Source of the DNA: a virus
Taxonomy: Duplodnaviria > Caudoviricetes
Length of the DNA stretch: 61,795 nucleotides
Virus record (IMG/VR): IMGVR_UViG_3300031825_000009
Span: 1-61,795 of that record
Direction: 5' to 3' (one strand)
Shown here: positions 2,331-42,458 of the stretch, one piece after another
Position numbering within the stretch: the first letter of the stretch is position 1
How the letters are laid out: each line of letters opens with the position of its first letter
Notes under the pieces: model-generated
What the model was told of the DNA's origin: nothing
The model's input: only the letters and a program-made list of their open reading frames with translations
Databases searched by the model: none
Program-made: the position numbers and the translations under genes

Positions 2331-3388
2331 CAGACGACCAGCCGGCCCCACGGGCGGACCACGACGCCACTGTAGCCGTCGAGGAGGGACACGCCGCTCT
2401 GGGCGATGCGCTCCAGGTCGTAGCGCTTCAGGCGATCTCGGGCCTCTCTGAGCCGCTTCTCGGCGACCGCAAGGGATGCCTGGGAGCCCCCGGTGGAGGC
2501 GGCCAGCGCCAGCGAGGCGGAGGCTACGGCAGCATCCTGGGCGGCCCTCGGCAGCTCGCCCCAGACGAGGCTCCAGACGGCCTTCACCGTGATGGCCTTC
2601 TCGAACACAAAGGAGCCGGTGGTCGTGTTGATCAGCCGGCGCTCGGTGCCCACGAGCCGCACGGCCACGGGTGCCAGGAGCGGATCGGTGCAGTCGACAT
2701 GGAGGACGCCGCTCGGGAGGACGATGTGGCCGGCCTCGTTGGGCGTGAGCACGAGGCCCTTGGTGGTGTTGAAGAACCACCCCTCGGCGAGGATGCTCTC
2801 GACCTCCGGGACGAGGAGGCGCTGGCTGCGCCGCGGGAGCGGGCCTAGGCGGTCCTCGAATGCCTTCTCGATCTCCTCGCGCTCCAGCCGCAGGCGGGCG
2901 TAGCGGAGGCGCCGGTCAGCCGCTTCGAGGAGCTTCTCCTCGGCCGCCGACGACAGGATGATGTCCAAGATGGCCTGGGCGACCGCCACGTCCTGCACGA
3001 TGCGGGGCATCTCGTCCCACGCCAGCAGCCACGTCACCTGGACGGTGATCGGGCTGGTGAACGCCAGCGAATGCGTGTCCGATCGGAAGAGGGTGCGGAC
3101 GCCCGCGTACCTGCGCTCGGAGACCGTCAGATCCGGCGGGTTAGTGACCGCGACCTGGATGGCCTTGTTCGGCACCAGGATGCGGCCGTTGGGCTGCGGG
3201 GCCAGGGTAAGCCCGCTGGTGGTGTTGAAGTACCAGCCCTCGGCCATGAGGCTTTCGGCGCTGGTCGTCAGGAGGAGTTGAGCCCGCTCAGCCAGGGGAC
3301 CACCCTGGGCGACGGACGCTACCGCCTCTTCCTGGAGGCCGGCCAGCACAAGGTTGACGGCCTCAAGCATCGTGAGTTGTTCGGCCAT
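2330..3388 (-). CDS. Tail tubular protein A (T7 gp11-like), internally duplicated
   Basis: LEAVNLVL N-terminus, two GW(Y/F)FN motifs, position between capsid and gp12. Confidence 0.85.
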   Translation of the reverse strand: MAEQLTMLEAVNLVLAGLQEEAVASVAQGGPLAERAQLLLTTSAESLMAEGWYFNTTSGLTLAPQPNGRILVPNKAIQVAVTNPPDLTVSERRYAGVRTLFRSDTHSLAFTSPITVQVTWLLAWDEMPRIVQDVAVAQAILDIILSSAAEEKLLEAADRRLRYARLRLEREEIEKAFEDRLGPLPRRSQRLLVPEVESILAEGWFFNTTKGLVLTPNEAGHIVLPSGVLHVDCTDPLLAPVAVRLVGTERRLINTTTGSFVFEKAITVKAVWSLVWGELPRAAQDAAVASASLALAASTGGSQASLAVAEKRLREARDRLKRYDLERIAQSGVSLLDGYSGVVVRPWGRLVV

Positions 3389-5580: not shown

Positions 5581-6347
5581 CAGATGCGCGACCGCGAGAG
5601 CTTGTCGACCACGTCCTGCCGGAACGCCGGGTCGGTCTTGTACTTCGGGTTCGCGATGTCGGCGAGCCACTCGGCTTGCGAGCGGTAGACACCGCCGCCA
5701 CCGGCCCCGACGCGCGGGGTGTCGAGGTAGGCCGGCTCCTTGCCGTTGGCCGCCTCGTAGGCGACCTTGAGGGCACGGACCTGAGCCTGAAGCTCGGCCA
5801 TCGAGCCGGTCGCAGACGCCTTGTTGAAGGCCGCGATCTGCTCCTTCGAGTAGCCGGTGGCCGCCCAGGCGAGCATGGCCTTGGCCTGCTCCTCGCCCCC
5901 GACCTCGGCGTAGAGGTCAGCGACGATGCGCTCGCCCTCGGCCCGCTTCGAGCCGATGTAGTCGTCGACCAGGGCCTTCGGGATGCCGGCCGCTTCGAGC
6001 TTGGCATAGCTCGCCTCGGACAGGGCGCCAGCGGTCTGGACCTCAGTGGCGAGGGCGTCGTAGTCGATCCCCTTGGCCGCAAGATCGGCCTCGACCTTCT
6101 GGTCTCCGGGGACCTTCTCGGGCGGAGTGTCCGTGGCAGCCGGCGGCGTATCCTCGGCCGCGGGCGGCGGAGCCTCTTCCCGGCCGGCCGTGCCCTGCTT
6201 GCGCTCCAGCTCGGAGTACGCCTTGGCGAGGTCCTCGGGGCTCTTGAACTTCTCCGGGAGCCACGCCGGGCGGTCTGTGGCCGGCGGCGGCGGGGCGTCG
6301 GGGCCGGTCGGCTCCGGCACGAACTCGACGCGGGTGACCTCACCCAT
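5580..6347 (-). CDS. Capsid scaffolding protein (T7 gp9-like)
   Basis: RPAWLPEKFKSPEDLAKAYSELE and C-terminal PKYKTDPAFRQDVVDKL motifs. Confidence 0.9.
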   Translation of the reverse strand: MGEVTRVEFVPEPTGPDAPPPPATDRPAWLPEKFKSPEDLAKAYSELERKQGTAGREEAPPPAAEDTPPAATDTPPEKVPGDQKVEADLAAKGIDYDALATEVQTAGALSEASYAKLEAAGIPKALVDDYIGSKRAEGERIVADLYAEVGGEEQAKAMLAWAATGYSKEQIAAFNKASATGSMAELQAQVRALKVAYEAANGKEPAYLDTPRVGAGGGGVYRSQAEWLADIANPKYKTDPAFRQDVVDKLSRSRI

Positions 6348-6504
6348 AGGTGACCACCGCGATGCCGTTGGAGTGGACCTTGCGGGTGGCCTTGCGGCCG
6401 TCCTCGGTGGTGATCTCGGTCACGGCCAGGGCCGGTCCGGCCACCGGGGCCGTCGGGGTCTCGGCAGACGCCTCGGGGGCGTCCGCGGCAGGCTTACGCG
6501 CTAT
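6340..6504 (-). CDS. Small hypothetical protein (54 aa) with putative ATA start; absent from ORF track
   Basis: GGAG-N7-ATA GCG CGT AAG; fills the portal-scaffold gap and overlaps both neighbours. Confidence 0.55.
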   Translation of the reverse strand: MARKPAADAPEASAETPTAPVAGPALAVTEITTEDGRKATRKVHSNGIAVVTYG

Positions 6505-8041
6505 TGCTCGTCTCCATTTGCTTCTGGGCCATTCCGCCCATTTGGTTGATGGCGTTCGGCCCGAGCTTCTCGGCGAGCTGCATGAGCATGGCCTGCTGCT
6601 GCTGGGCCTGGACTTCCTCCTTGGACAGGAGGAGGCCGTCGATCTCGATCCCGAGGGCGACCGCCCGCCGGGTCAGGTAGTCCTGCCAGTCGATGTACTG
6701 CGCGAGCTGCGGCGCGATCTGGACGGTGGCTGCGAGCGCGTCGAGGCGGTCGAGGTCCTGCCCGCGGCCGATCGCTTCGAGGCCCGTCACGACCGCCGGC
6801 TTGATCTCCGGCGGCAGCGGCGGAAGCTCGCCCTGCTTCTGGAGCTGGAACATGCGGCGGTTGATGAACGGGAGCTGGAGCTCGACGGACATGAGGGAGT
6901 AGATTCCTCCCATCGCGTCGTCCAGCTCGCGGGCCATGAAGCGGATCTCCTCCGCCGTCACCCGCTCGCCATTCCGCTGGATCGCGGTGTTGAGGAGGAA
7001 CGCGAAGGAGAGGCGCTGCTCCAGGGCCGCGACGCGCTCCAGGGTGACCCTGAAGTCCGCGTACTTCTCGACCTGGAACGCCTTGACGGCGTCGTGCTCG
7101 GCGACGACGAAGCCGCCGTTGACGCAGCCTGTGAGGTCGTCCGGTCGGACCGTGGCGCCGGGCTTGATCAGGTTGATGATGCGGGCCGCGATCTGGGCGG
7201 CATCATCGAGCGCCTTGGACTGCGTCTCCAGGGTCGCGAGATCGCCGATGTACTCCTCGACGAAGCCGCGGCCGTAGTCCTCGCCGTCGACCTTCATCCA
7301 GCGAACGGCGATCCACGGGGTCTTGTCGGTCGGGAAGGTGCCGATGGAGCCGGGGACGACGATGCCCTCGATCTCCTGGTGCGTCTTGTACCGCTTCTTC
7401 GGCCCTTCGAGCTGGACGTAGGTGTAGACGTCCACCGTGTCGACCTCGGGGGTCTTGGCGTCAGCGGGCTTCACAACGTCCACGGCGGCCCGAACCTTCT
7501 CGGGGAGCGTCTCTCGGGCGACCGCCTCCTTCACGACGATCTCCAGGACCGTGCCGTCCGGGGACCGCTTCACGACGTACTTGTCGAGGCGGAACACGCG
7601 GAGGCCGCCGGAGGGCGGAAGGTAGAGAAGGACGTTGCCGGAGACGGCCAGGAGGCGGAAGGCTTCGTAGAAGGAGACCCGCAGGGCCTCGGCGTCCATC
7701 GTCTGGATGACCTTGCGGACGATCTTGGCGAGCCCGCGATCGACCTCGGCCTTCATGCCCTGCTGCTTCGTCAGCTCCTCAAGGGTCATCTCGTCGATGG
7801 CCAGCTTGAAGAAGGGGACGTTGGGCGGGAACTGGCTGATCAGGAGCTTCGCGGCGATGTTGTTTAGGCCGCGAGCCCCGATGCTCTGGTACGGGCTCGG
7901 CAGGGCGGCCCCAGGCTGGAGGCCCTCCGGAGGGAACAGGGCCGGGATAGTGAGCGTTGCGCACTTCCGGGCCATGTCCAGGTAGGGCTGTCGTGTCGCC
8001 TGGAGCCGGGCATACCGAGCGGAGGCGATGCCCTCGCTCAA
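6494..8041 (-). CDS. Head-tail connector / portal (T7 gp8-like)
   Basis: PYQSIGARGLNN, GEDYGRGFVEEYIGDL, ERVTAEEIR, VTGLEAIGRGQD. Confidence 0.95.
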   Translation of the reverse strand: MSEGIASARYARLQATRQPYLDMARKCATLTIPALFPPEGLQPGAALPSPYQSIGARGLNNIAAKLLISQFPPNVPFFKLAIDEMTLEELTKQQGMKAEVDRGLAKIVRKVIQTMDAEALRVSFYEAFRLLAVSGNVLLYLPPSGGLRVFRLDKYVVKRSPDGTVLEIVVKEAVARETLPEKVRAAVDVVKPADAKTPEVDTVDVYTYVQLEGPKKRYKTHQEIEGIVVPGSIGTFPTDKTPWIAVRWMKVDGEDYGRGFVEEYIGDLATLETQSKALDDAAQIAARIINLIKPGATVRPDDLTGCVNGGFVVAEHDAVKAFQVEKYADFRVTLERVAALEQRLSFAFLLNTAIQRNGERVTAEEIRFMARELDDAMGGIYSLMSVELQLPFINRRMFQLQKQGELPPLPPEIKPAVVTGLEAIGRGQDLDRLDALAATVQIAPQLAQYIDWQDYLTRRAVALGIEIDGLLLSKEEVQAQQQQAMLMQLAEKLGPNAINQMGGMAQKQMETSNSA

Positions 8042-8462: not shown

Positions 8463-8794
8463 CGATGGTCTCCGCTGCCGCCAAGGACACCGCGGCGGGC
8501 GCGGTCTCGGGTCTTCTCGGTGTTCATCTGGGCGACCGTGCTGAGCTTGTAGCCCAGCAAGCGGGCGGTGTTGGCGACGTACCAAAGGACGTCCCCAAGC
8601 TCCTCGGCGGTGACCATGCGGTCCCACTCGGTGAACCGGCCGCCCCGGTCCCGGTAGACCTTCTTGACCTTCTCGGCGACCTCTCCCGCCTCTCCGCAGA
8701 GGCCGAAGACGCTCGCCGGGAGCATGTGCTCCGGGACGGTGACGACGTCGTGCTCGGCCGCGGCGTCCTGGAAGGCGTCGAAGTCGTTGGTCAC
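8459..8794 (-). CDS. MazG-like NTP pyrophosphohydrolase
   Basis: GLCGEAGEVAEKVKK...EELGDVLWYVA. Confidence 0.9.
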   Translation of the reverse strand: MTNDFDAFQDAAAEHDVVTVPEHMLPASVFGLCGEAGEVAEKVKKVYRDRGGRFTEWDRMVTAEELGDVLWYVANTARLLGYKLSTVAQMNTEKTRDRARRGVLGGSGDHR

Positions 8795-9018
8795 GACGCC
8801 TCCAGGGCGGAGATGTAGACGTCGAGCGCGTGCCGGGCCTTCTTCAGGTCCTCGACACCGCCCTTGTCCTGCCAGCGGGTGACGTACTTGACGACGGCAC
8901 CCTCGACGAAGCCGAGCTTGTTGGCGATGCAGTAGACGATCGGCTGGATCGCCAGCTTGGTGTAGTGGTCCCCGCCGACCTGTTCGGCCAGCGGGGAGGT
9001 CTTCGAAGCGTGCGTCAT
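8791..9018 (-). CDS. DUF3310-family protein (T7 gp1.7-related)
   Basis: QVGGDHY...GAVVKYVTRWQDKGGVEDLKKARH. Confidence 0.8.
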   Translation of the reverse strand: MTHASKTSPLAEQVGGDHYTKLAIQPIVYCIANKLGFVEGAVVKYVTRWQDKGGVEDLKKARHALDVYISALEAS

Positions 9019-24503: not shown

Positions 24504-24577
24504 TGGAGGTGACGGCCGGATTTGAACCGGCGTACACGGATTTGCAGTCCGCTGCGTAACCACTCCGCCACGTCACC
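24504..24577 (-). tRNA. tRNA-Cys (GCA), probable integration site of the T7-like phage
   Basis: GGTGACG...CTGCAAA anticodon loop...GGTTCAAATCC...CGTCACCTCCA; 74 nt with encoded CCA. Confidence 0.97.
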
Positions 24578-30377: not shown

Positions 30378-30428
30378 GCCCGAACCTCAATATCGCATGT
30401 TCGTTGATGATACCGGCAATGTGCATAC

Positions 30429-30619
30429 ACAGCCCCGACTTCAATCCGATAGAGCTGGCCTTCTCGAAGATGAAGGCCATCCTCAGGAAGGCGGCCGCCC
30501 GCACCCTCCCGGACCTCTGGGATGCGATCCGAGGCGCCATCGACGCCGTCACTCCGGGCGATGCACGCAGCTTCTTCACCGCCTGCGGCTATGAACCCGA
30601 ATGATCCGAATCTGCTCTA
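30429..30619 (+). mobile_element. Partial IS630 copy (3' 191 bp with right end)
   Basis: Near-identical to 31902-32092. Confidence 0.9.
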
Positions 30620-30658
30620 GCACTGATCTGCGTTTGTGACATACTTCCCGCGGCGATT

Positions 30659-31039
30659 GTGCCGCAAGGGGAGGGCGTTATGCCGGCTTCGCTCATAATA
30701 GAGACTGGACGATACACTTACGCAAATTACCTGCCATATGCTGGCAAAAAGAGTGCTCAAATTAAACTGGATAAATTCAAGGGCAAGTTTACTGAAATAA
30801 CGGATATCGTTGCTGGCATAGAAGGAATGCGTATCGCCAGTGTCGGCTACAATGCGGAGGAAGAAAAAGGAAGAAATAATCCATTAGTCCCTAACGAAAA
30901 CGATGTGATGTCCTCGGACACGGAGTTTAGTGTCAGGGGGCACGTGCTCGATGACAAACTATCGTGCGTAGTCGAAATTGTGGTAACGAGAGGGTACTTA
31001 CAGAACATAACTTTCACCTACATCATAATTGGACACTAG
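30659..31039 (+). CDS. AT-rich hypothetical cargo protein
   Basis: ORF between the two IS630 sequences; SD-supported ATG a few codons in. Confidence 0.6.
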   Translation: MPQGEGVMPASLIIETGRYTYANYLPYAGKKSAQIKLDKFKGKFTEITDIVAGIEGMRIASVGYNAEEEKGRNNPLVPNENDVMSSDTEFSVRGHVLDDKLSCVVEIVVTRGYLQNITFTYIIIGH

Positions 31040-32092
31040 AGCACATTCATCCGGGATTGAATCGGCTGGGGATTCCCTTGGCGAGTGATTTCTGATTCAC
31101 CGTGTGGACTGGCGAAGGAGGCCGGCTCGCATGGCGAACGCTCTTTCACTCGATCTTCGGCAGAGGGTTGTTGCAGCGGTCGAGGCCGGCGCGTCACGGC
31201 GGCAGGCGGCGGAGCGGTTCGGCGTCGGCGTCTCCTCTGCCATCCGCTGGGTTGCCCAGTCACAGGCGACGGGAGACCTCGAGCCGCGGCGGCGGGGCGG
31301 ATGTCGCCCGAGCCGCATCGACGGGCACGCCGATCTCATCAAGGACTGGATCGGCAGAGAGTTGGATCTGACGCTGGCGGAGATCGCCGAGAGGCTCGGC
31401 GAAGCCGTCGGCTACCGGCCGCCGCCGAGCGTGATGCACGACTTCTTCAAGCGCCGCGGCGTGACGCGCAAAAAAAGACGGCCCACGCCGCCGAGCAGGA
31501 CCGGCCGGACGTAGCGCACCGGCGACACACCTGGTTCGACGGCCAGCCGGACCTCGATCCCGAGCGCCTCGTCTCCATCGACGAAAGCGGCACCTCCACC
31601 AAGATGGCCCGCCTCTATGGCCGCGCGTCCCGGGGCGAGCGATGCCGGGCGCCGGTTCCGCACGGGCACTGGAAGACGACGACGTTCGTCGGGGGCCTCA
31701 CCCTTGCGGGCATCGTCGCGCCGATGACCATCGACGGCGCGATGACCGGCGCCGCCTTCCTCGCCTATGTCGAGCAGGTTCTGGTCCCGACCCTCAGGCC
31801 GGGCGACGTCGTCGTCCTTGACAATCTGCCGGCCCACAAGCCGGGCGCCATTCGCGAGGTCATTGAGGCCGCAGGAGCCGTCATGCACTTCCTGCCGCCA
31901 TACAGCCGCGACTTCAATCCGATAGAGCTGGCCTTCTCGAAGATGAAGGCCATCCTCAGGAAGGCGGCCGCCCGCACCCTCCCGGACCTCTGGGACGCGA
32001 TCCGAGGCGCCATCGACGCCGTCACTCCGGGCGATGCACGCAGCTTCTTCACCGCCTGCGGCCATGAACCCGAATGATCCGAATCTGCTCTA
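31037..32092 (+). mobile_element. IS630-family insertion sequence (orfA 31131-31514, orfB to 32077, A7G frameshift site at 31470-31477)
   Basis: TAGAGCA(C/G)ATTC terminal IRs with TA target; SIDESG, VLDNL, DFNPIE DDE motifs. Confidence 0.93.
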
Positions 32093-32543: not shown

Positions 32544-33305
32544 TCAGTCCGTCGTAAATCGTCCGATGACGCGTCCAACGATGGAGATTTCTTCGAGCAC
32601 GCGCTCGCGCGGTGTATGCCGCGGGTTGTCTGACTGCACCAGAACCCGTATCGGCTCTTCGCCGATGACCGAAACAACCTCGAGCCGCTTGACTTCGACC
32701 CCGCCGAACGCGTCGGCCAACGCATAGACGCCTGGGGGCGATGGCCGTCGGTGGGTGATGTCGACGAAGACGACGTCACCGTTGCGGATCGTGGGCATCA
32801 TCGAGTCGCCGGCGACGGGGAAGCACGCGACACTGCTCGCCTTCGCGTTCAGCTGAGACCGCAACAGCCATGGCGGCAGCCGCCACCAGTCCCGCAACTC
32901 CTCGGCGGCATAGGTGTGGCCGTTGGAACCCGCCTCCTGAGTGACGATCGACAATGTGCCCGGCCCGAGCCCGCCGGTGACGAGAACCTCAGGGATGGCG
33001 TCGTCGGGAATGCCGCGCCGACCGGTCTCGCTGCCGATGGTCGGAGGATGCTCGGGCGCGCGCTCCTGGAATGAGCGCACGGGCGCACCGAGAGAGACCT
33101 CGTCGACGCCGAGAATGTCCGCGAGCCGCTGCCGGTCGGTCTCCTTCAGATGCCGCGGGACGCCCCTGTTCAGGAACTGTTGGATGAAGGCCGGGTTGCG
33201 GCCGATCTCCCGCGACAGCGTCGACATGTCGATCTCGCGATCCTCGATGAGGGTCGCGAGGAACACGCGAGCGGGCGAGCGGTCGAACAGTTTGGTCGGA
33301 GCCAT
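32544..33305 (-). CDS. cI: CI-like repressor (HTH + S24 peptidase)
   Basis: LSREIGRNPAFIQQFL HTH; GDSMMPTIRNGD and VKRL catalytic Ser/Lys. Confidence 0.9.
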   Translation of the reverse strand: MAPTKLFDRSPARVFLATLIEDREIDMSTLSREIGRNPAFIQQFLNRGVPRHLKETDRQRLADILGVDEVSLGAPVRSFQERAPEHPPTIGSETGRRGIPDDAIPEVLVTGGLGPGTLSIVTQEAGSNGHTYAAEELRDWWRLPPWLLRSQLNAKASSVACFPVAGDSMMPTIRNGDVVFVDITHRRPSPPGVYALADAFGGVEVKRLEVVSVIGEEPIRVLVQSDNPRHTPRERVLEEISIVGRVIGRFTTD

Positions 33306-33379
33306 AGGAGAAATCCTATTGATCAACCCGCTTGCACGCGAATAGGATTATGCCTATCTTCGGATAGGAAGTTGCCTAC
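33304..33379. promoter_or_regulatory. OR operators (three) and PR promoter
   Basis: ATAGG-N6-CCTA(T/C) at 33304-33319, 33342-33357 and 33364-33379; TTGCAC-N17-TATCTT. Confidence 0.85.
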
Positions 33380-33389
33380 GGGACGCGCG

Positions 33390-33614
33390 ATGAGCTTCGT
33401 TGACACATTCAGAACGGCGGTTGAGGCGTTCCTCGTCGAGACCGGGATGTCCGCGACCGCGCTCGGCGTGGCCGCCGTCAAGGATCCCAACTTCGTCGGA
33501 GATCTGCGCAGCGGGCGCGACCCGCGCGGGTCGACGATCGACGCTGTGATGACGTTCATGACCAGCGAGCGCGCTCGCAGGGCATCCTCCCCCGCCGCCG
33601 AGGCCGCCGAATGA
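33390..33614 (+). CDS. Cro-like protein
   Basis: VEAFLVETGMSATALGVAAVKDPNFVGDLRSGR; divergent from cI. Confidence 0.8.
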   Translation: MSFVDTFRTAVEAFLVETGMSATALGVAAVKDPNFVGDLRSGRDPRGSTIDAVMTFMTSERARRASSPAAEAAE

Positions 33615-33671
33615 GCCGGCTGGACGCCCTCGCCCGCACGCTCGGCCGGCGGGCCGCCCGGCGGGCGCGGC

Positions 33672-33944
33672 TCATGGCGGCGGACCGACCGCGGACGCTT
33701 CCATGGCGGCCGCGGCCGTCTCGAAGGCGAGCTGCAGCGCCTCGGCGAGGGGCGGCGCATCGGCTGCTGCGGCGGCTGCGGCGTCTCCTGCCGTGCGCAG
33801 CCCGTCGGCGGTGGCGAACATGACGGCCGGGACCGCCTCGCCGGTGACGACGCCGGCCGCGACGAGGGCATCGAGCAGGGCGCGCGCGGCGAGCGCCTGG
33901 ACCGTTTCGAGCGCGGCGATGCGCGCGGCCATCCCGATCGACAT
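33672..33944 (-). CDS. Antisense hypothetical protein
   Basis: GGAGGG SD then ATG; helical ORF. Confidence 0.5.
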   Translation of the reverse strand: MSIGMAARIAALETVQALAARALLDALVAAGVVTGEAVPAVMFATADGLRTAGDAAAAAAADAPPLAEALQLAFETAAAAMEASAVGPPP

Positions 33945-34063
33945 CGTGGGTTCCCTCCCGCCGCGCCGGGAGCGCGGGCCGCCGTGACCTGACGATCCGG
34001 CCACCCGCCGACTGAAGCACCGCCGAACCGGTTTCGCAGCGAAAAAACGCGAGGGCGATTTTC

Positions 34064-34540
34064 GTGGACAGCAGAGCTTTGCCCGCCGGCCTGATTCCGG
34101 CGCTGAAGGAGGCGACCCGCGCCGCGGTGCTCGCCGCCGGCGGCGTCAAGCGCGTGTGCGAGATCACCCGGCTCTCGGCGCCCTACCTCTCGAAGTGCCA
34201 GGGCGACGCCTATCCGGACCTGCTGCCGCCGTGGGCGATGGCACTCGTCGAATTCCACGCCCAGGCCCCCGTCTTCGCCAACGCCTTCGCCTCGCTCACG
34301 TCGCACCGGGTGATGCCGATCGCCGAAGGCGGCGGCGACGACAGCGGCGGGCACATCGCCGACCTCGCCGCGGTGGCGATGGCGGCCGCGGCGGTGACCG
34401 CCACGATGGCCGAAAACGCCGCCGACGGCGTGGTGACCGCGCGCGAGGCGAAGGGCGAGATGCGCCAGATCGGCGCGCTCGAGCGGGTGATGGACCGGCG
34501 CAAGCGCCGGCTCGCCGTGGTGGTGGGAGGCGGGGCATGA
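34064..34540 (+). CDS. CII-like regulatory protein
   Basis: LKEATRAAVLAAGG...LSKC; ADGVVTAREA C-terminus; downstream of cro. Confidence 0.65.
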   Translation: MDSRALPAGLIPALKEATRAAVLAAGGVKRVCEITRLSAPYLSKCQGDAYPDLLPPWAMALVEFHAQAPVFANAFASLTSHRVMPIAEGGGDDSGGHIADLAAVAMAAAAVTATMAENAADGVVTAREAKGEMRQIGALERVMDRRKRRLAVVVGGGA

Positions 34541-35643
34541 GCGGCACCCCCTGCTGGCGCAGGGTTCGGCGCTCAACCATTCCTGCGCCGACAGCCACGT
34601 GGCGGGGCGATATCGTCTACAATCTCTCCAATTCTATCGTCACTCTCCCGGTCAATGTAGTACGCATAAACCATATTCTTTTCATTATTCATGAACTGAT
34701 GAATATCCGGTTTATTCGAGCATTCGAAATGAACTATTTTACTTCTAAGCTCGGTCGCGGGAGAGAATCTAATATCAACCTTCTCGTTTTCATAACTCCA
34801 TATAGAACCAACGACGCGGTTACTCGCGAATCGAACAACTCCGGTCACTCTGCTGAGATTGAAATATATTGTACCCCCATATATCTCAGTCTCTCTGGAA
34901 TTCATATCTGCGTCTATAATATTAAGTTCTTCGGCATTTATTTCTACCACATTTCCAGAAAATCTCACGTTTCTAATACTCCCGAAGAGTCGAATTTTGC
35001 AGTAATATTTGCAGTATATCTCCGCCCAGGAGAGGTCGGCATTTCTTGCGTCAATGCCATTTCCGGAGAGCACGTCAATCTTCGCGCCTCGGAGATTGGC
35101 ACTTTGAATATTCACCGAATCCATTCCTGCATTCGTGAGCTTGGCTCCCCTGAGGTCTGCCCCCTTCAGTTGAGCATTCGTCAGGTCCGCTCCATTGAGG
35201 TTAAGCCCGACCAGATAGGCGCCGGCCGCTCCCTCGGTGGGCGGGCTCAAGTCGATGCCGCTCAAAGACTGTGCGGCGCCACCGAAGAGACCGAGCCACG
35301 GTGGGCTCGCCAGATACTCCATCGCCTCGACCTTTCCGGAGTTGCCGGGCGCCGGGGTCGTGAGGAGTTGCCATGCGCGGGCGCGCCGCTCGGCCGGGCG
35401 CTCGCTGAGATCGATGACGAAAGCGGCGACCGCGATGACGACGGCGAACACCTCCGCGAGCCGGAAGGCGCGAACGACGCTGCTGCCCTCGGCGCGATCG
35501 AACCATGTCCGGCGCGGAGAAGTCTCCTTCGGAGATCCACGGCTTTCGCCGGGTTCCGGCAGTGCGGTCATGACGTCCCCCCCTTCGCGACCACCGTCAC
35601 GCTACTCGCGAGCCGGCCCTCAGCAAAGCGGGAAGCACCGTGA
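34537..35643 (+). CDS. Sense-strand ORF fully overlaying an antisense moron (putative translational bridge)
   Basis: GGGAGG-N6-ATG overlapping the cII-like stop; TGATG overlap with the methyltransferase start. Confidence 0.4.
   Translation: MSGTPCWRRVRRSTIPAPTATWRGDIVYNLSNSIVTLPVNVVRINHILFIIHELMNIRFIRAFEMNYFTSKLGRGRESNINLLVFITPYRTNDAVTRESNNSGHSAEIEIYCTPIYLSLSGIHICVYNIKFFGIYFYHISRKSHVSNTPEESNFAVIFAVYLRPGEVGISCVNAISGEHVNLRASEIGTLNIHRIHSCIRELGSPEVCPLQLSIRQVRSIEVKPDQIGAGRSLGGRAQVDAAQRLCGATEETEPRWARQILHRLDLSGVAGRRGREELPCAGAPLGRALAEIDDESGDRDDDGEHLREPEGANDAAALGAIEPCPARRSLLRRSTAFAGFRQCGHDVPPFATTVTLLASRPSAKREAP
34573..35571 (-). CDS. Pentapeptide-repeat membrane protein (moron)
   Basis: TM segment, RAWQLL, A(D/N)L pentapeptide repeats, AT-rich 3' half. 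Confidence 0.8.
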   Translation of the reverse strand: MTALPEPGESRGSPKETSPRRTWFDRAEGSSVVRAFRLAEVFAVVIAVAAFVIDLSERPAERRARAWQLLTTPAPGNSGKVEAMEYLASPPWLGLFGGAAQSLSGIDLSPPTEGAAGAYLVGLNLNGADLTNAQLKGADLRGAKLTNAGMDSVNIQSANLRGAKIDVLSGNGIDARNADLSWAEIYCKYYCKIRLFGSIRNVRFSGNVVEINAEELNIIDADMNSRETEIYGGTIYFNLSRVTGVVRFASNRVVGSIWSYENEKVDIRFSPATELRSKIVHFECSNKPDIHQFMNNEKNMVYAYYIDRESDDRIGEIVDDIAPPRGCRRRNG

Positions 35644-37613
35644 TGCGCGCCGCGACGGACCTTTTCGGGGCGATCGCCGGGCCGCGGCCAGCGCCGGGCG
35701 ACGAGCTCATCGTCGACTCGTTCGCCGGCGGCGGCGGGGCCTCGACCGGGATCGAGATGGCGCTCGGCCGCTCGCCCGACGTCGCCATCAACCACGATTC
35801 CTGGGCGCTCCGGGTCCACGCTGCGAACCACCCGGCAACCTGGCACCTCTCGAAGAACGTCTGGCAGGTCGACCCGCTCGAGGCCGTGCGCGGCCATGCC
35901 GTCGGCCTCGCCTGGTTCTCGCCGGACTGCAAGCACTTCTCGAAGGCGAAGGGCGGCAAGCCGGTGCGCAAGAGCGTGCGCGATCTCGCCTGGGTGGTGG
36001 TGCTGTGGGCGAAGCGGGTCCGGCCGCGCGTCATCATCCTGGAAAACGTCGAGGAATTCCGCGACTGGGGGCCGATCACCGCCGAGGGGCGGCCCTGCCC
36101 GGAGCGCAAGGGCGAGACCTTCGCGCGGTGGGTGGGGGAATTGAAGCGGCTCGGCTACCGGGTCGAGCACCGCGAGTTGCGCGCCTGCGACTACGGCGCG
36201 CCGACGACGCGCAAGCGGCTGTTCCTGATCGCCCGGCGCGACGGGCGGCCGATCGTCTGGCCGGCGGCGACGCACGGGCGGCCCGACGACCCGGAGGTGC
36301 TGGCCGGCCGCAAGCGGCCGTGGCGGACCGCGGCGGAAATCATCGACTGGTCGCTGCCGTGCCCCTCGATCTTCGCCTCGAGCGCGGAGATCAGGGCGGC
36401 GCTCGGGGTCACCGCCAAGCGGCCGCTCGCCGAGGCGACCATGGCGCGAATTGCGAAAGGCGTGTGGCGCTACGTGGTGACGGCGAAGCGGCCGTTCATC
36501 GTGCCGGTGACGCACGCCGGCGACCTGCGCGTGCACTCGGCCGACGAGCCGCTGCGGACGATCACCACGGCCATGCGCGGTGAGCTGGCGGTGGTGGCGC
36601 CGGCGCTCGCCGCGCCGTTCGCGAGCTACGGCCAGCAGGGCGGCGCCTCGCGGCCGCTCGACGCGCCGCACTCGACGATCACGGCGAGCCGGAAGGATAC
36701 GAACGGGCTCGTCGTGCCCACTCTCGTCCCGGTCGATCTCGTCGCCGGGGCGATGGTGCAGACGGGCTATGGCGAGCGCAAAGGGCAGGCCCCGCGGGCG
36801 CTCGACGTCGAGGCGCCGATCGGCACGCAGGTCGCCGGGGCGACGAAGCACGCCGTGGTCGCGGCGCACCTCTCGATCATGCGCAACTCGGACAAGCCAT
36901 TCACGGCGGCCGACGAGCCGATGCACACGATCACGGCCGAAGGGGCACGCCCGGCCCTCGTCTCGGCCTTCCTCGCGCAGCATAACACCGGCGTCGTCGG
37001 GCACGAGGCCGGCAAGCCGCTCTCGACGATCACCTCGGGCGGGATGCACGGCGTCTCGCAGCAGGCGATCGTGGCGGCGCACCTGCAGCGGCAGTTCTCG
37101 CGCTCGGTCGGGGCGGAGGCCGGCGAGCCGCTGCGCACCGATTCCGAGCGCGGCAAGGATGCCGTGGTCGCGGCGCACCTCCTCAACCTGCACGGCGGCG
37201 ACCGGCGCGACCGCGCCGCCGACGAGCCGGTGCCGACCATCGCCGCCGGCGGCAACCACGTCGCGGAAGTCCGCGCCTTCCTGATGCGCTACTACGGCGA
37301 GGGCGGGCAGTGGTCGGCCTGCGACGAGCCGGTGCCGACGGACACGGTGAAGCCGCGCTTCGGGCTCGTGACCGTTTCCGGCGTCGAGTACCAGATCGTC
37401 GACATCGGCATGCGGATGCTGACGCCGCGCGAGCGCTTCGACGCGCAGGGTTTTCCGCCCGGCTACATCATCGACACGACGCTCGACGGCAAGCCGATCA
37501 CCGCGGAGATCCAGGGCCGGCTCGTCGGCAACTCGGTCTGCCCGCCGATGGCCGCCGCCCTCGTCGCCGCCAACTGCGCCGACCTCGCGGTCGCGCAGGA
37601 GGCGGCGGAGTGA
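35643..37613 (+). CDS. DNA (cytosine-5) methyltransferase
   Basis: FAGGGG, SPDCKHFS, ENVEEF, RKRLF, GNSVCP. Confidence 0.93.
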   Translation: MRAATDLFGAIAGPRPAPGDELIVDSFAGGGGASTGIEMALGRSPDVAINHDSWALRVHAANHPATWHLSKNVWQVDPLEAVRGHAVGLAWFSPDCKHFSKAKGGKPVRKSVRDLAWVVVLWAKRVRPRVIILENVEEFRDWGPITAEGRPCPERKGETFARWVGELKRLGYRVEHRELRACDYGAPTTRKRLFLIARRDGRPIVWPAATHGRPDDPEVLAGRKRPWRTAAEIIDWSLPCPSIFASSAEIRAALGVTAKRPLAEATMARIAKGVWRYVVTAKRPFIVPVTHAGDLRVHSADEPLRTITTAMRGELAVVAPALAAPFASYGQQGGASRPLDAPHSTITASRKDTNGLVVPTLVPVDLVAGAMVQTGYGERKGQAPRALDVEAPIGTQVAGATKHAVVAAHLSIMRNSDKPFTAADEPMHTITAEGARPALVSAFLAQHNTGVVGHEAGKPLSTITSGGMHGVSQQAIVAAHLQRQFSRSVGAEAGEPLRTDSERGKDAVVAAHLLNLHGGDRRDRAADEPVPTIAAGGNHVAEVRAFLMRYYGEGGQWSACDEPVPTDTVKPRFGLVTVSGVEYQIVDIGMRMLTPRERFDAQGFPPGYIIDTTLDGKPITAEIQGRLVGNSVCPPMAAALVAANCADLAVAQEAAE

Positions 37614-39580
37614 CGGCGACATTGGCTTCCAGCTCAGAAGGCGCTGAATTGCGCACCCACTCTTCAGGGCCGTCAGGAGACAATAGGGCTCCCGAATACT
37701 CAACCTCGATCGATCTCAGCGTCTATTTTTCTTACAAGCGAGTAAACCCTTCTTTCTTCGGAGGACGCCGCACTTTTAATTTTGACTATCGCCTCGTGCA
37801 ATTCGCTCAAGCTCTTCTCACATTTCGCGATAAATCGACCCGCACTATTGCTTCCGGACGGAAGATTCCAATATTCACTACTTATCCCCTCCAATACGAC
37901 CCCGTAGGCGCGGGTTACAACCCTCTCAAGATTGTCCGCAGCATCCATGATTCCGCTGGAGGCCGCATCAATCCTTGCACTATCAACCAATTCGAGGATC
38001 GAATTGGACGCCTCGTACGCATTCACTATCGTTATTTCATCTTTTGTGATGAATTCATCACGGGACGTATCTTCTCCATTAGGCTGATAAGCCATTCTTG
38101 TTCTGTTTATAGTAAAATTCATTATTCTTATGAATTTATCAATATCCTTGTTCTTTCTTTTTATCTCTACCCTGTACTTCAAAATAGATGCTCTTGTCTT
38201 CTTCAAATCCGTGCGTCGATTAATGTTAAACTGGTGCCAGACCGGTCGGGTGGCAACATACGCCGCGATCAACGTGAGCGCACCGCCGAGCGCCGTCGCT
38301 GCGACACCAAGCCATTCACGCGCGCATTGGATAGTGTTCTCGGAATCCGCTTTTCCGCACAGCGCAGGAATTCCGACATTGTCTTCAAAATAGAACCTAC
38401 AAATCAGCATTCCGAGAATGGTGCTAAATACGCCGCACGCTACGATCGGAATAATCCCGCCCGGATTTTCCTTCTTGCTCAATACTATCACTCCCATTCT
38501 TCTATTTCGCTGCCTAAAGAATGTAGATTTCTGTCAAACATCCGGCGTCTAGGTGGTGCGATGCCCCGCATCGCTCGGGGGAGCGTCGTCGATGAGGCGC
38601 GACAAGCAGGTATTGCGAGTGGACAGTCGTGCCGCGTCGTAGGGGCAAAGGAGCGCCAGGTTGATTTCATCGGGCCGCGGCCTGCGAACGAGGTGCGCTG
38701 CGATGCGAAAGGCGGCTGCATCTATGGCCAAGCGAAAGACGCCCGAGCGTTTACCGCCCGGGCGTCCATGTCAGGCGGCGACCGCCTCGACGATGAGGCG
38801 CACGCCGAGGGCGCGTGCGGCCTTGTCGAGCCGATCGAGCTTCGTGTTGTGCGACGGATCGAGGATCCGCCGCACCTCGCCTTCATCGAGGCCGAGCCGT
38901 GCCGCGAGCGCGACCTTGCTCACGCGGCTCGCCCGCCATGCGGACCAGACGGCCAGCTTGGCGGCGAAGGGGGCCGGCAGCGGAACGGCCACCTCCCCCT
39001 CGATGGGCGCGCTCGGGACCGGGATGTCCATCCCGTCCTTCATGCGCCCGCCGATCGCCACGACGAGGGCATCCTCGGCCTGATCCAGCGCCTCGGCTTC
39101 GGTCCGGCCGGCGGTGATCACCTCCGGCAGATCACGGCACGAGACGAGGATTTCGTCACCTTCGCCCGACCGTTCCAAGCGGACCGGCCATGCGAAGGAC
39201 CGCGGGTGCTCAGACATCAATTCCGATCTCCTTTCATCGGCGGCGTCCGTGAGGGGGCTCGCGCCCCCTCACAACTCCGCCGGATCAATTCCGACCTGTT
39301 CGCAGATCCGGCGAATGTGCATCGGGCTCAAGTCGCCGTCCTGCACCGTCGTTACCCGGCCTCCGAACCTGACCCGGTAGTGGCTGCCTTTGCCCAAGGT
39401 CTTGTCGACCTCGATTTCCAGCCCCCGCTTCCGGGCCAACCGGCGGAGCTTCCGGATCAGCTGATCTCTCAGCATGGGGTCGCTCCCGTTCAGTTTGTAG
39501 GGTCAATATCGGACAAAAATGTCCGCCCGTCAAGCGTGATCGGCGCTTTTTGTCCGATTTTTTCGGAGCGCACGGCATGA
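37610..39580 (+). CDS. 656-codon sense-strand ORF overlaying three antisense genes (putative translational bridge)
   Basis: AGGAGG-N7-GTG overlapping the methyltransferase stop; ATGA overlap with the primase start. Confidence 0.4.
   Translation: MTATLASSSEGAELRTHSSGPSGDNRAPEYSTSIDLSVYFSYKRVNPSFFGGRRTFNFDYRLVQFAQALLTFRDKSTRTIASGRKIPIFTTYPLQYDPVGAGYNPLKIVRSIHDSAGGRINPCTINQFEDRIGRLVRIHYRYFIFCDEFITGRIFSIRLISHSCSVYSKIHYSYEFINILVLSFYLYPVLQNRCSCLLQIRASINVKLVPDRSGGNIRRDQRERTAERRRCDTKPFTRALDSVLGIRFSAQRRNSDIVFKIEPTNQHSENGAKYAARYDRNNPARIFLLAQYYHSHSSISLPKECRFLSNIRRLGGAMPRIARGSVVDEARQAGIASGQSCRVVGAKERQVDFIGPRPANEVRCDAKGGCIYGQAKDARAFTARASMSGGDRLDDEAHAEGACGLVEPIELRVVRRIEDPPHLAFIEAEPCRERDLAHAARPPCGPDGQLGGEGGRQRNGHLPLDGRARDRDVHPVLHAPADRHDEGILGLIQRLGFGPAGGDHLRQITARDEDFVTFARPFQADRPCEGPRVLRHQFRSPFIGGVREGARAPSQLRRINSDLFADPANVHRAQVAVLHRRYPASEPDPVVAAFAQGLVDLDFQPPLPGQPAELPDQLISQHGVAPVQFVGSISDKNVRPSSVIGAFCPIFSERTA
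37700..38497 (-). CDS. AT-rich membrane protein (moron)
   Basis: Two TM segments flanking CAREWLG, followed by a helical domain; lower GC. Confidence 0.7.
   Translation of the reverse strand: MGVIVLSKKENPGGIIPIVACGVFSTILGMLICRFYFEDNVGIPALCGKADSENTIQCAREWLGVAATALGGALTLIAAYVATRPVWHQFNINRRTDLKKTRASILKYRVEIKRKNKDIDKFIRIMNFTINRTRMAYQPNGEDTSRDEFITKDEITIVNAYEASNSILELVDSARIDAASSGIMDAADNLERVVTRAYGVVLEGISSEYWNLPSGSNSAGRFIAKCEKSLSELHEAIVKIKSAASSEERRVYSLVRKIDAEIDRG
38771..39220 (-). CDS. hicB: HicB antitoxin
   Basis: VSCRDLPEVITAGRTEAEALDQAEDAL plus C-terminal HTH. Confidence 0.9.
   Translation of the reverse strand: MMSEHPRSFAWPVRLERSGEGDEILVSCRDLPEVITAGRTEAEALDQAEDALVVAIGGRMKDGMDIPVPSAPIEGEVAVPLPAPFAAKLAVWSAWRASRVSKVALAARLGLDEGEVRRILDPSHNTKLDRLDKAARALGVRLIVEAVAA
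39269..39475 (-). CDS. hicA: HicA toxin
   Basis: GKGSH motif, 68 aa, upstream of hicB. Confidence 0.85.
   Translation of the reverse strand: MLRDQLIRKLRRLARKRGLEIEVDKTLGKGSHYRVRFGGRVTTVQDGDLSPMHIRRICEQVGIDPAEL
39508..39558 (-). promoter_or_regulatory. hicAB promoter/operator
   Basis: TTGACG-N17-GATATT containing the CGGACA-N4-TGTCCG palindrome; 12-bp IR at 39508-39519/39547-39558. Confidence 0.65.
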
Positions 39581-40647
39581 CCTCGCGCGATGACGGCGAC
39601 GTCATCCGCGGGCGGCTCGTCGACGAGCTCGAGCGGCTGCTCGACGCCTATTGCCCTGGGTGGCTCGAGGTGCGCGGCGAAGGCTATCTCGCGCCGAAGA
39701 GCCGGGGCGACCTCGGCTCCTGGCGGGTGACGCTCGACGGGCAGCGGCGCGGGCTCTGGTATCGCCACAGCCAAGGCCTCGGCGGCGACGTGCTGGCGCT
39801 TCTCGCCTATTGCCTGTCCGGCAGCGTCAAGGTGGACGCGCGCACCTTCGAGGAGGCGCGGCGCTTCCTCGGCATCGAGGGGCGGCCGGACCCGGCCGAG
39901 GCCGAGAGGCGCCGGCGCGAGGCGGAGGCGCGGCGCGCCGCGCACGCCCGCGACGCCGCCGAGGCGCGGCTGCGCGAGACGATGAAGGCGCGCGACATCT
40001 GGCGCGCCGCCCGGCCGGCGGCGGGGACGCCGGTCGCCCGGTGGCTCGCCGCGCGCGGGCTCGACCTCGCCGCCGTGCCGCCGACGCTGCGGTTTCACCC
40101 GCGCCTGCCCTACTGGTGGTCGCCGCCGCGCGCCAAAGGCGAGGCGCCGCCGCGGCCCGTCGTCATCCACGACGGCCCGGCGATGGTCGGCCTCGTGACG
40201 CACGGGGAGACGGGGCGGCTCGTCGGGGTGCACCTGACGTGGCTCGCCGAGGATGGGCGGGCGAAGGCGGCGATCACCGCGCCGGACGGCAGGCCGCAGC
40301 TCGCCCGCAAGATGCGCGGCGCGCCGCGGGGCGGACACGTGCGCCTGGCGCCGCCGGCGGCGGCGATCGTGGTGGCCGAGGGGGTCGAGACCGCGCTCGC
40401 CGTGATGGCGGCGACGGGGCTGCCGACCTTCGCCGCGCTCTCGCTCGGCAACCTCGCCGCGCCCCTACCGGCCGGCGTCGGCGCCGTAGTGCTGGCGGTC
40501 GATGCCGACGAGGCCGACCCGGCCCGCGCCGAGACGACGAAGCGCGCCGCGGCCGAGGCGCACGCCGCCCGCGGGCTCGCCGTGAGCATCGCCCGGCCGC
40601 CGGCGGGGCACGACTTCAACTCGCTCTATCGAGGCGGGACGCGATGA
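39577..40647 (+). CDS. Toprim-type primase-like protein
   Basis: LRFHPRL, GVHLTWL, VAEGVETAL, DFNS. Confidence 0.8.
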   Translation: MTSRDDGDVIRGRLVDELERLLDAYCPGWLEVRGEGYLAPKSRGDLGSWRVTLDGQRRGLWYRHSQGLGGDVLALLAYCLSGSVKVDARTFEEARRFLGIEGRPDPAEAERRRREAEARRAAHARDAAEARLRETMKARDIWRAARPAAGTPVARWLAARGLDLAAVPPTLRFHPRLPYWWSPPRAKGEAPPRPVVIHDGPAMVGLVTHGETGRLVGVHLTWLAEDGRAKAAITAPDGRPQLARKMRGAPRGGHVRLAPPAAAIVVAEGVETALAVMAATGLPTFAALSLGNLAAPLPAGVGAVVLAVDADEADPARAETTKRAAAEAHAARGLAVSIARPPAGHDFNSLYRGGTR

Positions 40648-42458
40648 CGGACCACGACGACCTCGCCGGACCCGACGCCGTGCGCGACGCCATCGCGGCG
40701 GCCGAGCCCTACGCCGCGCGGCCCGCCCGCCCCGCAGCCCCGGCCGACCTCGGCGGCGCCTTCGCCGACGACGAGGCCGAGGGTAGCGAGGCGCCCTCGG
40801 AAACGCTGGGGGGCGCCGGGGGGCGCGCGGGCGCGATCGACATGGCGGTCGTGGGGGAGTGCGCGGCGCTCGACCACTCCGACACCGACAACGGGCGGCG
40901 GCTCATCGCGCACTTCGGCGCGGATCTGCGCGTCTTCCAGACCTCCGGCGAGCGCAATGCGGGCTTCGTGGTGTGGGCCGGAACGCACTGGAACCTCGAC
41001 ACCGGCAAGGACGCCGCCTTCGCGATGGCACAACGGGTGGGCGGGCTCATCGCGCTCGAGGCCGACCACCTCGCCCAGACGCCGGCCGAGGCGCGGGCGA
41101 TCGACGAGGGCGAGGCGGCCGCCGAGGCGCTCGCCCGGATGGAACCGCGGCGGGCCGAGTGGTCGGATGCCGACAAGGCGACGGCGCGGCGGCTGGAGCG
41201 CGCCATCGACGCCGCCGATGCCGCCCGCGACGCGCTCGACAAGCGGAAGGCGGCGCGGCGGAAATTCGGCGTCTCCTCGAAGAACGCGGCGCGGCTGAAG
41301 GCGATGCTGGAATGCGCCGCGCCGATGCTGCTGACGCCGCCGGAGGCCTTCAACCGCGACCCGCTGGTGGTGGCGACGCGCACGCACACCCTGCGCTTCC
41401 GCCGCACGCCCGACCTCGAATGCCCGGATCCCGACGGGCTGCGCTGGACGGCCGAGTGCATCGCGAGCGACGGGCACCGGCGCGACGACCTCGTGACGCG
41501 CATCGTCGACCTCGCTTTTGACGACGCGGCGGCGTGCCCGCTCTTCGACGCCTTCCTGCTGCGCTTCCTGCCTGTCGATTCGGTCCGCCGCTTCGTGCAG
41601 GTGGTGGCGGGGCTCGGGCTCCTCGGCTCGACGGTGCAGAAGCTCGTCTTCCACTACGGCGAGGGGGCGAACGGCAAGAGCGTGTTCCTGCAGACGATCG
41701 CCAACGTGCTCGGCGCGCTCGCCTCGACGCTCTCGCCCGACGCCATCACCGGATCGAACCAGCGGCAGGGCAACCAGGCGAGCCCGGAGCTCGCCCGGCT
41801 CTTCGGCAAGCGCTTCGTCCGCGTCTCGGAACTGCCGGAGGGCATTCCGCTGCAGGAGGAACTGGTGAAGCGCCTTTCGGGCGGCGAGGACATTCCCGTC
41901 CGAAACCTCTTCCAGGGCATCTTCGACTTCCACCCGGAATTCATCGCCCACATGTCGGGCAACGGCTATCCGCGTATCGAGGGCACGAACAACGGCATCT
42001 GGCGCCGTATGGCGGTGGTGCACTGGCCGGTGACGCTGGCCGAGGACGAACAGAAGCCCTTCGACGAGGTGATCGACGGCTTCCGCCCGGAATATTCCGG
42101 CATCCTCAACTGGCTGGTGCAGGGCGCGCTGATCTACCTCGCCGAGGGGCTCTACGTGCCGCCGGAGGTGAAGGCGGCGACGAAGGAATACCGCGACGAG
42201 ATGGACCCGATCGGGCCGTTCTGCGAGGCGTGCGTCGAGGTCTTTCCCGAAGGCATCGTCCAGGCGCGCGAGATGTATGAAGCCTATGTGTCGTGGGCGA
42301 TGGCGAACGGCGTCAAGCCTATTCACGAGACGCGGTTCGGAAAGACGATGAAGACACGATTCCGGCGCGACGATGAGCGCATCCGCCGCTACCACGACTG
42401 CCGATTGCACGACGTGCCGCTGCGACCGGACACACCCCGCAACCCCCGGGAGGATTGA
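40644..42458 (+). CDS. P4-family primase / D5-like helicase
   Basis: DTDNGRRL, GEGANGKS Walker A, GIWRRM. Confidence 0.88.
   Translation: MTDHDDLAGPDAVRDAIAAAEPYAARPARPAAPADLGGAFADDEAEGSEAPSETLGGAGGRAGAIDMAVVGECAALDHSDTDNGRRLIAHFGADLRVFQTSGERNAGFVVWAGTHWNLDTGKDAAFAMAQRVGGLIALEADHLAQTPAEARAIDEGEAAAEALARMEPRRAEWSDADKATARRLERAIDAADAARDALDKRKAARRKFGVSSKNAARLKAMLECAAPMLLTPPEAFNRDPLVVATRTHTLRFRRTPDLECPDPDGLRWTAECIASDGHRRDDLVTRIVDLAFDDAAACPLFDAFLLRFLPVDSVRRFVQVVAGLGLLGSTVQKLVFHYGEGANGKSVFLQTIANVLGALASTLSPDAITGSNQRQGNQASPELARLFGKRFVRVSELPEGIPLQEELVKRLSGGEDIPVRNLFQGIFDFHPEFIAHMSGNGYPRIEGTNNGIWRRMAVVHWPVTLAEDEQKPFDEVIDGFRPEYSGILNWLVQGALIYLAEGLYVPPEVKAATKEYRDEMDPIGPFCEACVEVFPEGIVQAREMYEAYVSWAMANGVKPIHETRFGKTMKTRFRRDDERIRRYHDCRLHDVPLRPDTPRNPRED

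Follow-up and report, generated by a model that had tools for sequence, protein, structure and literature searches.

The DNA analyzed here (the window) comprises positions 1-61,795 of virus record IMGVR_UViG_3300031825_000009, a sequence of the Caudoviricetes with a guanine-plus-cytosine (GC) content of 69%. We focus on an open reading frame (ORF) of 368 codons at 34537-35643, here called the bridge ORF, which spans the region between a CII-like early gene and a C5 cytosine DNA methyltransferase (methylase) gene and lies opposite a pentapeptide-repeat gene, here called the cargo gene. The features of the locus are the following.

32544-33326, minus strand: S24-peptidase repressor-like gene, recognized by family search; the genes to its right lie on the plus strand.
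34064-34540, plus strand: CII-like early gene of 158 amino acids in the ORF list, matching phrog_101 (“CII-like transcriptional activator”, E 6.5e-8).
34525-34530, plus strand: Shine-Dalgarno-like GGGAGG within the end of the CII-like gene, 6 nt before the ATG of the bridge ORF.
34537-35643, plus strand: bridge ORF of 368 codons from ATG to TGA, with zero internal stops in the sequence.
34573-35571, minus strand: antisense cargo gene (moron) of 332 codons, matching PF00805 and lying in phase 0 with the bridge ORF.
35640-37613, plus strand: C5 cytosine DNA methyltransferase gene (start at GTG 35640 or ATG 35643), matching PF00145 with E 1e-22.

Both ends of the bridge ORF are joined to the neighboring genes in the manner of a chain of coupled genes. 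At the 5′ end, the ATG at 34537-34539 and the CII-like TGA at 34538-34540 form an ATGA overlap (34537-34540) behind GGGAGG-N6, while at the 3′ end the TGA at 35641-35643 shares its A with the methylase ATG at 35643-35645 to form TGATG (35641-35645); with GTG 35640 as the alternative methylase start, this junction becomes GTGA. A sequence-only reading had described a GGGAGG-N6-ATG at 34537 overlapping the stop of a cII-like gene, a 368-codon frame open in register with an antisense gene at 34573-35571, and a TGATG end on the methyltransferase ATG. All of this is present in the DNA as described, with the antisense gene in phase 0, and the phrog_101 and PF00145 matches bear out the identities proposed for the two flanking genes. 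We note that the frame of the bridge ORF can be read without a stop from as far upstream as 33988 and has a GTG at 34156, although this stretch is GC-rich and hence little informative. Between the CII-like gene and the methylase gene, GC drops to 0.40.

The minus-strand gene under the bridge ORF is real. Its product contains an N-terminal membrane helix, a conserved RAWQLLTT/GNSGK motif and pentapeptide repeats, and the pentapeptide-repeat identity proposed earlier is upheld by a PF00805 match over residues 117-147 (E 2.2e-11), whose 43.5 bits clear the family's gathering cut-off of 20.2. A search with the protein returned 282 homologs at E<=1e-3, bearing PF00805, PF13576 and PF13599. The best of these (42% identity over 45% of the protein) share the helix, the motif and the repeats, and one homolog, P0003, aligns over most of the length (30% identity, E 2e-31, BLASTP residues 1-301 of 332; 91% coverage in the search listing), which establishes the gene as genuine. 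It also has both marks of a moron, a deviant composition (GC 0.45 over its 3′ 628 bases, 34573-35200, vs 0.69 for the window) and absence from relatives at the same site. In metagenome run X8, contigs of relatives part from the window at 34536 and 35631, which are the bridge ORF's borders, and one of them runs on through a TGATG junction into other, GC-rich sequence. Given the low depth of these contigs, this is a weak hint.

Because the two frames are codon-aligned, the bridge frame is open exactly when the cargo gene contains no TTA, CTA or TCA codon. The cargo gene has 24 leucine and 26 serine codons, and none of them is TTA, CTA or TCA. Over the span of the bridge ORF, the other two plus-strand frames contain 11 and 18 stops. 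Stop avoidance is thus a property of one reading frame and does not reflect a shortage of particular trinucleotides in the DNA; plain avoidance of TAA, TAG and TGA on the plus strand is ruled out by the same counts. Likewise, a general avoidance of rare A-ending codons or of TpA is ruled out by the usage of ATA (7 times), AGA (8 times) and GTA, which is used freely; GGA occurs 10 times. When third positions were shuffled among four-fold boxes and among purine-ending two-fold boxes, 6.27 TTA, CTA or TCA codons were expected, and zero was reached in about 0.05% of shuffles (p=5e-4).

An empirical null was drawn from 303 ORFs of >=300 codons with GC<0.58 and a purine-rich coding strand. They came from 104 loci, with L087 left out as a duplicate of L013; any ORF under a longer overlapping ORF was also excluded, so that bridged cargo is absent from the set by construction. 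Not one of the 303 whole genes is free of TTA, CTA and TCA. In windows with an expectation of 5.5-12 such codons, zero was found in 2/287 windows of 230 codons, 1/283 of 265 codons and 1/165 of 332 codons, an empirical rate of 0.4-0.7% per gene-sized window.

The window contains a second frame of the same kind, at 37610-39580, directly downstream of the methylase gene.

37610-39580, plus strand: second bridge ORF of 656 codons, with 0 internal stops vs 13 and 27 in the other plus-strand frames.
37700-38497, minus strand: AT-rich cargo gene, termed g2, encoding 265 amino acids with membrane helices; no family match; phase 0.
38771-39220, minus strand: HicB-like gene (PF15919, E 5.7e-5, below the Pfam cut-off); phase 0.
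39269-39475, minus strand: HicA-like gene (PF07927, E 0.0022, below the Pfam cut-off); phase 0.
39577-40647, plus strand: next early-operon gene, with its ATG at 39577 in an ATGA junction.

The GTG start of the second bridge, behind GGAGG, overlaps the methylase stop (GTGA), and its TGA overlaps the ATG at 39577 of the next plus-strand gene. All three antisense genes beneath it lie in phase 0. The AT-rich one, g2, contains 0 TTA, CTA or TCA codons vs 8.12 expected, a result reached in 1/50,000 and 0/40,000 shuffles in two runs; g2 has no Pfam, PHROG or PADLOC match, and a scan of viral_contigs returned no relatives. Outside the operon, the window has two other AT-rich islands (29.8-31.2 kb), whose ORFs carry such codons at 3 vs 3.1 and 3 vs 3.7 expected. 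The sequence-only reading had taken the repeat of the architecture at 37610-39580 as an argument against chance, and this argument is strengthened by the counts for g2 and by eight further loci described below, as well as by the lack of such a pattern in AT-rich genes that are not embedded backwards in an operon.

Relatives of the methylase were confirmed in three collections (at least 576, at least 573 and at least 579), and we assembled 240 loci, 80 per collection, each around a relative with 42-60% identity. AT-rich islands were scanned in the GC-rich loci (GC>=0.60) among L001-L161, and the cargo proteins were searched against all loci by tblastn. Eight further bridges were found in other phages and prophages, in L001, L029, L038, L056, L080, L085, L119 and L140. 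Those with features beyond the common anatomy are the following.

L001: 595-codon bridge over a gene for a protein with two transmembrane segments and a helix-turn-helix gene, possibly with a third ORF (8561-8932) in another phase.
L056: bridge over a DUF4145 cargo gene (phrog_1305, E 3e-27).
L080: bridge over a cargo gene matching phrog_33632.
L119: bridge over a minus-strand cargo gene at 5752-6852, a membrane protein with a weak, sub-threshold pentapeptide-like Pfam match.
L140: bridge over a minus-strand cargo gene at 1907-3010, likewise a membrane protein with a weak, sub-threshold pentapeptide-like Pfam match.

Every one of the eight further cargo genes has 0 TTA, CTA or TCA codons, vs 4.1-11.3 expected, and summed over the ten tested cargo genes, the window's two included, 0 are observed vs 74.9 expected. 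The bridge frames have zero internal stops and the other plus-strand frames over them have 3-27. At the 5′ end, the bridge start could be placed in 9/10 cases (all but L085), and these nine starts overlap the upstream stop or sit <=4 nt away and are preceded by GGAGG- or GAGG-like motifs at 5-10 nt; at the 3′ end, all ten bridge stops overlap the next start by <=8 nt or sit 2 nt before it. The cargos of the eight further bridges differ (two transmembrane segments, DUF4145/phrog_1305, pentapeptide-like), and 3/8 are related to other cargos in the set. The L119 and L140 cargos are related to each other at E 1e-8. L013, which belongs to the same phage as L087, probably adds an eleventh case, though a less informative one (0 vs 4.06 and 0 vs 2.46 expected).

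As controls, we used the AT-rich island ORFs from the same scan that lie under no bridge. Set aside from the island ORFs were the 8 bridged entries and 8 others: two duplicates of L013 entries, the probable L013 bridge, a shadow of two plus-strand genes in L090, an intergenic repeat region in L086, a non-coding-looking frame in L121, a host mutS in L061 and an undecided 105-codon case in L151. The remaining 23 ORFs contain 163 TTA, CTA and TCA codons vs 201.2 expected (ratio 0.81), with a lowest count of 2 and thus no zero in any of them. These controls are co-oriented with a neighbor or stand at divergent or convergent borders, except for L147 and for L004 3173-3724, whose context is ambiguous. 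A zero count was found in 0/23 unbridged ORFs vs 8 of the 9-10 embedded backwards, and Fisher's exact test for zero count against backwards-embedded context gives p 1e-6 to 6e-6, where context was assigned by reading ORF maps, partly after the frames had been seen, and is to that extent a post hoc judgment.

A relative of the window's CII-like gene (50% identical) is found in one locus only, L003. There, three small plus-strand genes lie between the CII-like gene and the methylase gene, chained by 4-nt overlaps, where the window has its insert, so that in this operon coupled ORFs follow one another without a break. Read from the sequence, the bridge ORF preserves this predicted chain across the insert.

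Translational coupling via overlapping stop and start codons (ATGA, TGATG, GTGA) is well established. Both ends of the bridge ORF use such junctions, and L003 chains real genes likewise. In contrast to the established cases, the coupled unit here is a 368-codon frame of antisense sequence and not a protein gene.

Taken together, the open frame is not a product of chance, and its interpretation as a bridge is the best supported one. We consider it probable that 34537-35643 is a “bridge” (escort) ORF by which ribosomes would be relayed across the insert, the translation mattering rather than the protein. In the proposed course of events, a cargo gene would have been inserted against the early rightward operon, between the CII-like gene and the methylase gene, in an operon whose genes are linked by overlapping stop and start codons. 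Selection would then have purged the cargo gene of TTA, CTA and TCA, which are stops on the operon strand, each change being synonymous for the cargo protein. Ribosomes ending the CII-like gene would restart at the ATGA, aided by GGGAGG, cross 368 antisense codons and stop on the methylase start. Their cover on the pyrimidine-rich sense RNA (C/G 1.20 over the bridge ORF vs 0.93 in the flanks) would avert Rho-type polarity, and ribosomes would be passed to the downstream gene. The operon would accordingly have to be transcribed across the insert and the frame translated. We infer that the benefit lies in polarity suppression or in translational coupling.

Two precedents from other systems, taken as leads only, make polarity suppression plausible. 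According to a passage in PMC10111431, which cites Forti 1999, translation of eta in phage P4, coupled to the upstream gene, prevents termination. The similarity, as far as this passage describes it, is that translation of an upstream-coupled ORF averts termination, so that downstream genes are reached; on the other hand, Eta and Kil of P4 are described as functional proteins, and the eta/kil region is not the reverse of a cargo gene. The bridge ORF seemingly has no protein role and is enabled by synonymous codon choice in the antisense gene. The second lead is the purine bias of coding strands, which according to part of PMC13323073 shields nascent RNA from premature termination, pyrimidine-rich RNA being prone to it.

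Several observations weigh against the bridging interpretation. Among the first 8 bridges, C is only modestly enriched over G in 6 (1.1-1.3) and not at all in L001 and L119, and most downstream genes have a Shine-Dalgarno motif of their own, so that coupling is not strictly required for their initiation. All further cases stand beside one anchor gene, and the eight were picked by scans for the signature itself. The window's moron is without a close relative in a word-indexed protein search and a scan of viral_contigs. In L147, a DUF805 gene lies between two minus-strand genes with no bridge and with 6 TTA, CTA or TCA codons vs 7.6 expected; it is a real counter-example if the flanking minus-strand genes are co-transcribed.

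The other points on this side are those that favor an ordinary antisense shadow, arising by chance and codon bias from the rarity of TTA, CTA and TCA, with junctions that are the usual overlaps of the flanking genes. The three codons are under-used generally, with an observed/expected ratio of 0.5-0.8 in the 240 methylase orthologs, although 0/49 of those orthologs with a GC content at third codon positions (GC3) of 0.4-0.6 have zero of them. Under the harshest scaling (0.5), the chance of zero for 34573-35571 alone rises to 0.04, and the chance probability for this ORF alone consequently ranges from about 5e-4 to 0.04. At GC 0.4-0.58, loci often contain codon-aligned shadows of 150-250 codons with no stop; a scan of all loci (3.67 Mb) for DNA open on both strands was too unspecific in this range, and we use it only to caution against overinterpretation and as the scan that brought up L028, L029 and L045. 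L028 and L045 contain whole-gene shadows with no operon opposite, over a repressor gene at 1180-1806 on the minus strand (208 codons) and at 2525-3112 on the minus strand, respectively, which shows that at GC around 0.55 a bridging role is not needed for such frames to arise.

Among the alternatives to the bridging interpretation, an interplay of sense and antisense transcripts fares best, and we regard it as unlikely. Here, too, the frame would be translated, but the ribosomes would block pairing with the cargo mRNA, and with it double-strand cleavage of the kind known from noncontiguous operons, or would aid the polymerase through head-on transcription. Noncontiguous operons, according to the abstract of PMC11034616, yield overlapping, mutually repressing transcripts; four have been mapped in prophage 80alpha, and the S. 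aureus menE-type belongs to the same class. The anatomy of the window is the same, with the minus-strand gene 34573-35571 between the plus-strand genes 34064-34540 and 35640-37613. As in the operons described there, one or more genes run against the rest of the operon from within it, and the operon transcript would cross them in antisense. The merely modest C-richness of the sense RNA also fits an interplay. The sequence does not separate it from polarity suppression, however, and the two are not mutually exclusive. A crude consensus scan, built for sigma-70 promoters, gave zero promoter-like sites for the cargo gene and zero terminator-like sites in 34000-36000; the lack of a terminator-like site is compatible with a spanning transcript and is no proof of one. 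A search of 33000-40000 against Rfam gave zero matches. The same abstract mentions neither a junction-coupled stop-free frame nor a codon constraint on the backwards gene.

A true overlapping gene, with a functional 368-amino-acid sense product encoded antisense to the pentapeptide gene, is very unlikely. The strong Shine-Dalgarno motif, the ATG start and the operon context would suit such a gene, and antisense overlapping genes are reported in bacteria in excerpts of the literature. The ESM Atlas holds the 368-amino-acid sequence letter for letter, which means that some gene caller predicted the ORF. The Atlas model of it, however, has a predicted template modeling score (pTM) of 0.13 and a mean predicted local distance difference test score (pLDDT) of 0.26, and the entry yielded no usable feature match. 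The product has no Pfam or PHROG match, as the sequence-only reading had anticipated in finding no recognizable domain; among the sense products scanned, 0/5 (the window's two and those of L038, L080 and L056) matched Pfam and 0/2 (the window's) matched PHROGs.

Homologous pairs of bridges tell against a constrained protein as well. L080 and L029 form a syntenic pair, with identities of 57% and 71% between the flanking proteins and only a 47-residue patch (38%) shared between the cargo proteins. Although their sense products show no significant likeness (E 0.038), the two loci retain both ATGA junctions along with the open frame. For L038/L085, identity is 46% between the cargo N-termini and 31% between the sense products over the stretch that mirrors them, a value to be expected from the common DNA. 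In both pairs, the frame and its junctions persist while sense conservation is no higher than the mirror image of the cargo protein demands, so that a weaker form of the dN/dS test suggested in the sequence-only reading is passed. Neither a family (Pfam, PHROG) nor a fold (pLDDT 0.26) nor an amino-acid constraint (the homologous pairs) was found that would mark an antisense protein gene. At least seven kinds of cargo lie under the ten bridges, so ten unrelated functional proteins would be needed. What the ten cases share is only that they are stop-free and coupled, which points to the act of translation rather than its product; the sense products look like by-products.

An ordinary antisense shadow, finally, is highly improbable in view of the zero counts confined to backwards-embedded genes in a single island scan, the empirical rate of zeros, two cases in one window with three cargo genes in one phase, frames that begin right at the upstream stop in 9/10 cases and end on the next start in 10/10, and the free use of other rare A-ending codons.

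Beyond the single locus, a general design rule can be formulated from these sequences, by which genes inserted backwards into tightly coupled phage or bacterial operons would lose TTA, CTA and TCA for the sake of translation on the opposite strand; in our judgment the arguments for and against such a rule are evenly balanced. That the frame would, under this rule, have no protein function and ribosome traffic as its only valuable product is a proposition to which we give equal credence and doubt.

Full-text literature searches (supplements excluded) returned no account of frames without stops that span genes lying backwards in an operon. Besides noncontiguous operons and P4 eta/kil, the nearest published item is preprint 10.1101/724807, whose abstract and summary report stop avoidance in long antiparallel ORFs and speculate on a non-protein role of their translation. 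Similar to the frames described here, these codon-aligned antisense ORFs are commoner than expected, without negative selection on translation; in contrast, operon context, backwards-embedded genes and start/stop junctions do not appear in that abstract and summary.

Classical morons are prophage cargo genes with their own promoter and terminator. The cargo gene of the window resembles them in its deviant composition (GC 0.45 vs 0.69), in being missing from relatives at the site and in its orientation, which is that of the repressor gene. It differs in that no promoter or terminator was detected by the simple scan, and the moron concept does not include a bridging frame.

If the bridging interpretation holds, synonymous codon choice would be subject to a new selective constraint, set by keeping the opposite strand stop-free, and the frames would form a new class of ORFs translated for the act of translation alone, which gene callers annotate as hypothetical proteins (compare the ESM Atlas entry) or discard. 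It would also explain how prophages carry lysogeny-expressed cargo backwards in essential early operons without polar damage. The noncontiguous-operon atlas, in the part represented by its abstract, states that such operons are not computationally predictable (PMC11034616); the bridging frame would provide a sequence-only signature for them, marking operon membership and co-transcription.

The cargo gene itself is a compositional chimera. Codons 1-124, which encode the helix, the motif and the first repeats, have a GC3 of 0.80, and codons 125-332 have a GC3 of 0.46. The earlier description of the antisense gene as AT-rich therefore holds for its last ~208 codons and fails for its first 124. 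The AT-rich C-terminal part may be a swapped or recently acquired module; it shows a weak feature likeness (0.88, with the bar at 0.9) to pentapeptide clusters automatically named “type III effector”.

The cargo gene is oriented like the repressor-like gene at 32544-33326, and its stop lies 33 nt from the CII-like stop; should its mRNA extend further 3′, the added stretch would run antisense to the last part of the CII-like gene. The OOP RNA of phage lambda, which lies opposite cII, would be a parallel to such an extension. Short contigs identical to the cargo region (34437-34885 and 35204-35373) occur in two soil-metagenome runs, X2 and X8, of a study different from the probable source, from which it follows that the phage, or at least the cassette, is present in a second data set. 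In a phage GenBank collection, only the methylase part was matched, with <=27% of the query covered.

Similar cargo recurs under other bridges. Membrane-anchored pentapeptide-type proteins are found in 3/10 bridges (L119, L140 and 34573-35571 of the window), and the L140 cargo gene stands directly after a CII-like gene; such proteins may be a recurrent class of lysogeny cargo. A single family comprising the window's pentapeptide protein and the L140 cargo is not supported, as BLASTP finds no similarity between them (E 2.8). The L140 cargo was found in 1/401 genomes of its order, which is its own genome, and scans of viral_contigs with the L056, L038 and L080 cargos each recovered only the query itself. 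PADLOC matched 0/5 of the cargo proteins searched (the window's two and those of L038, L080 and L056). In L119, one ATGA links the bridge stop to a 39-codon plus-strand ORF for a hydrophobic peptide (6903-7022), and a second ATGA links this ORF to the following gene, so that the coupled chain runs on through a mini-ORF.

Two further observations concern other parts of the window. ARAGORN calls a tRNA-Cys at 24504-24577 on the minus strand and a tRNA-Arg(CCG) at 41739-41823, also on the minus strand, within the long plus-strand ORF region 39651-42458; for the latter, a false call is possible, as is a tRNA that lies antisense within a gene. At 31085-32077 lies a transposase-like ORF of 330 amino acids, possibly frameshifted relative to an ORF at 31104-31514, and a nearly identical second copy of its last ~55 residues is found at 30404-30604, 1.4 kb upstream. 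Together, the transposase pieces at 30404-32077 resemble the remains of an insertion sequence, located in the AT-rich region between the two arms.

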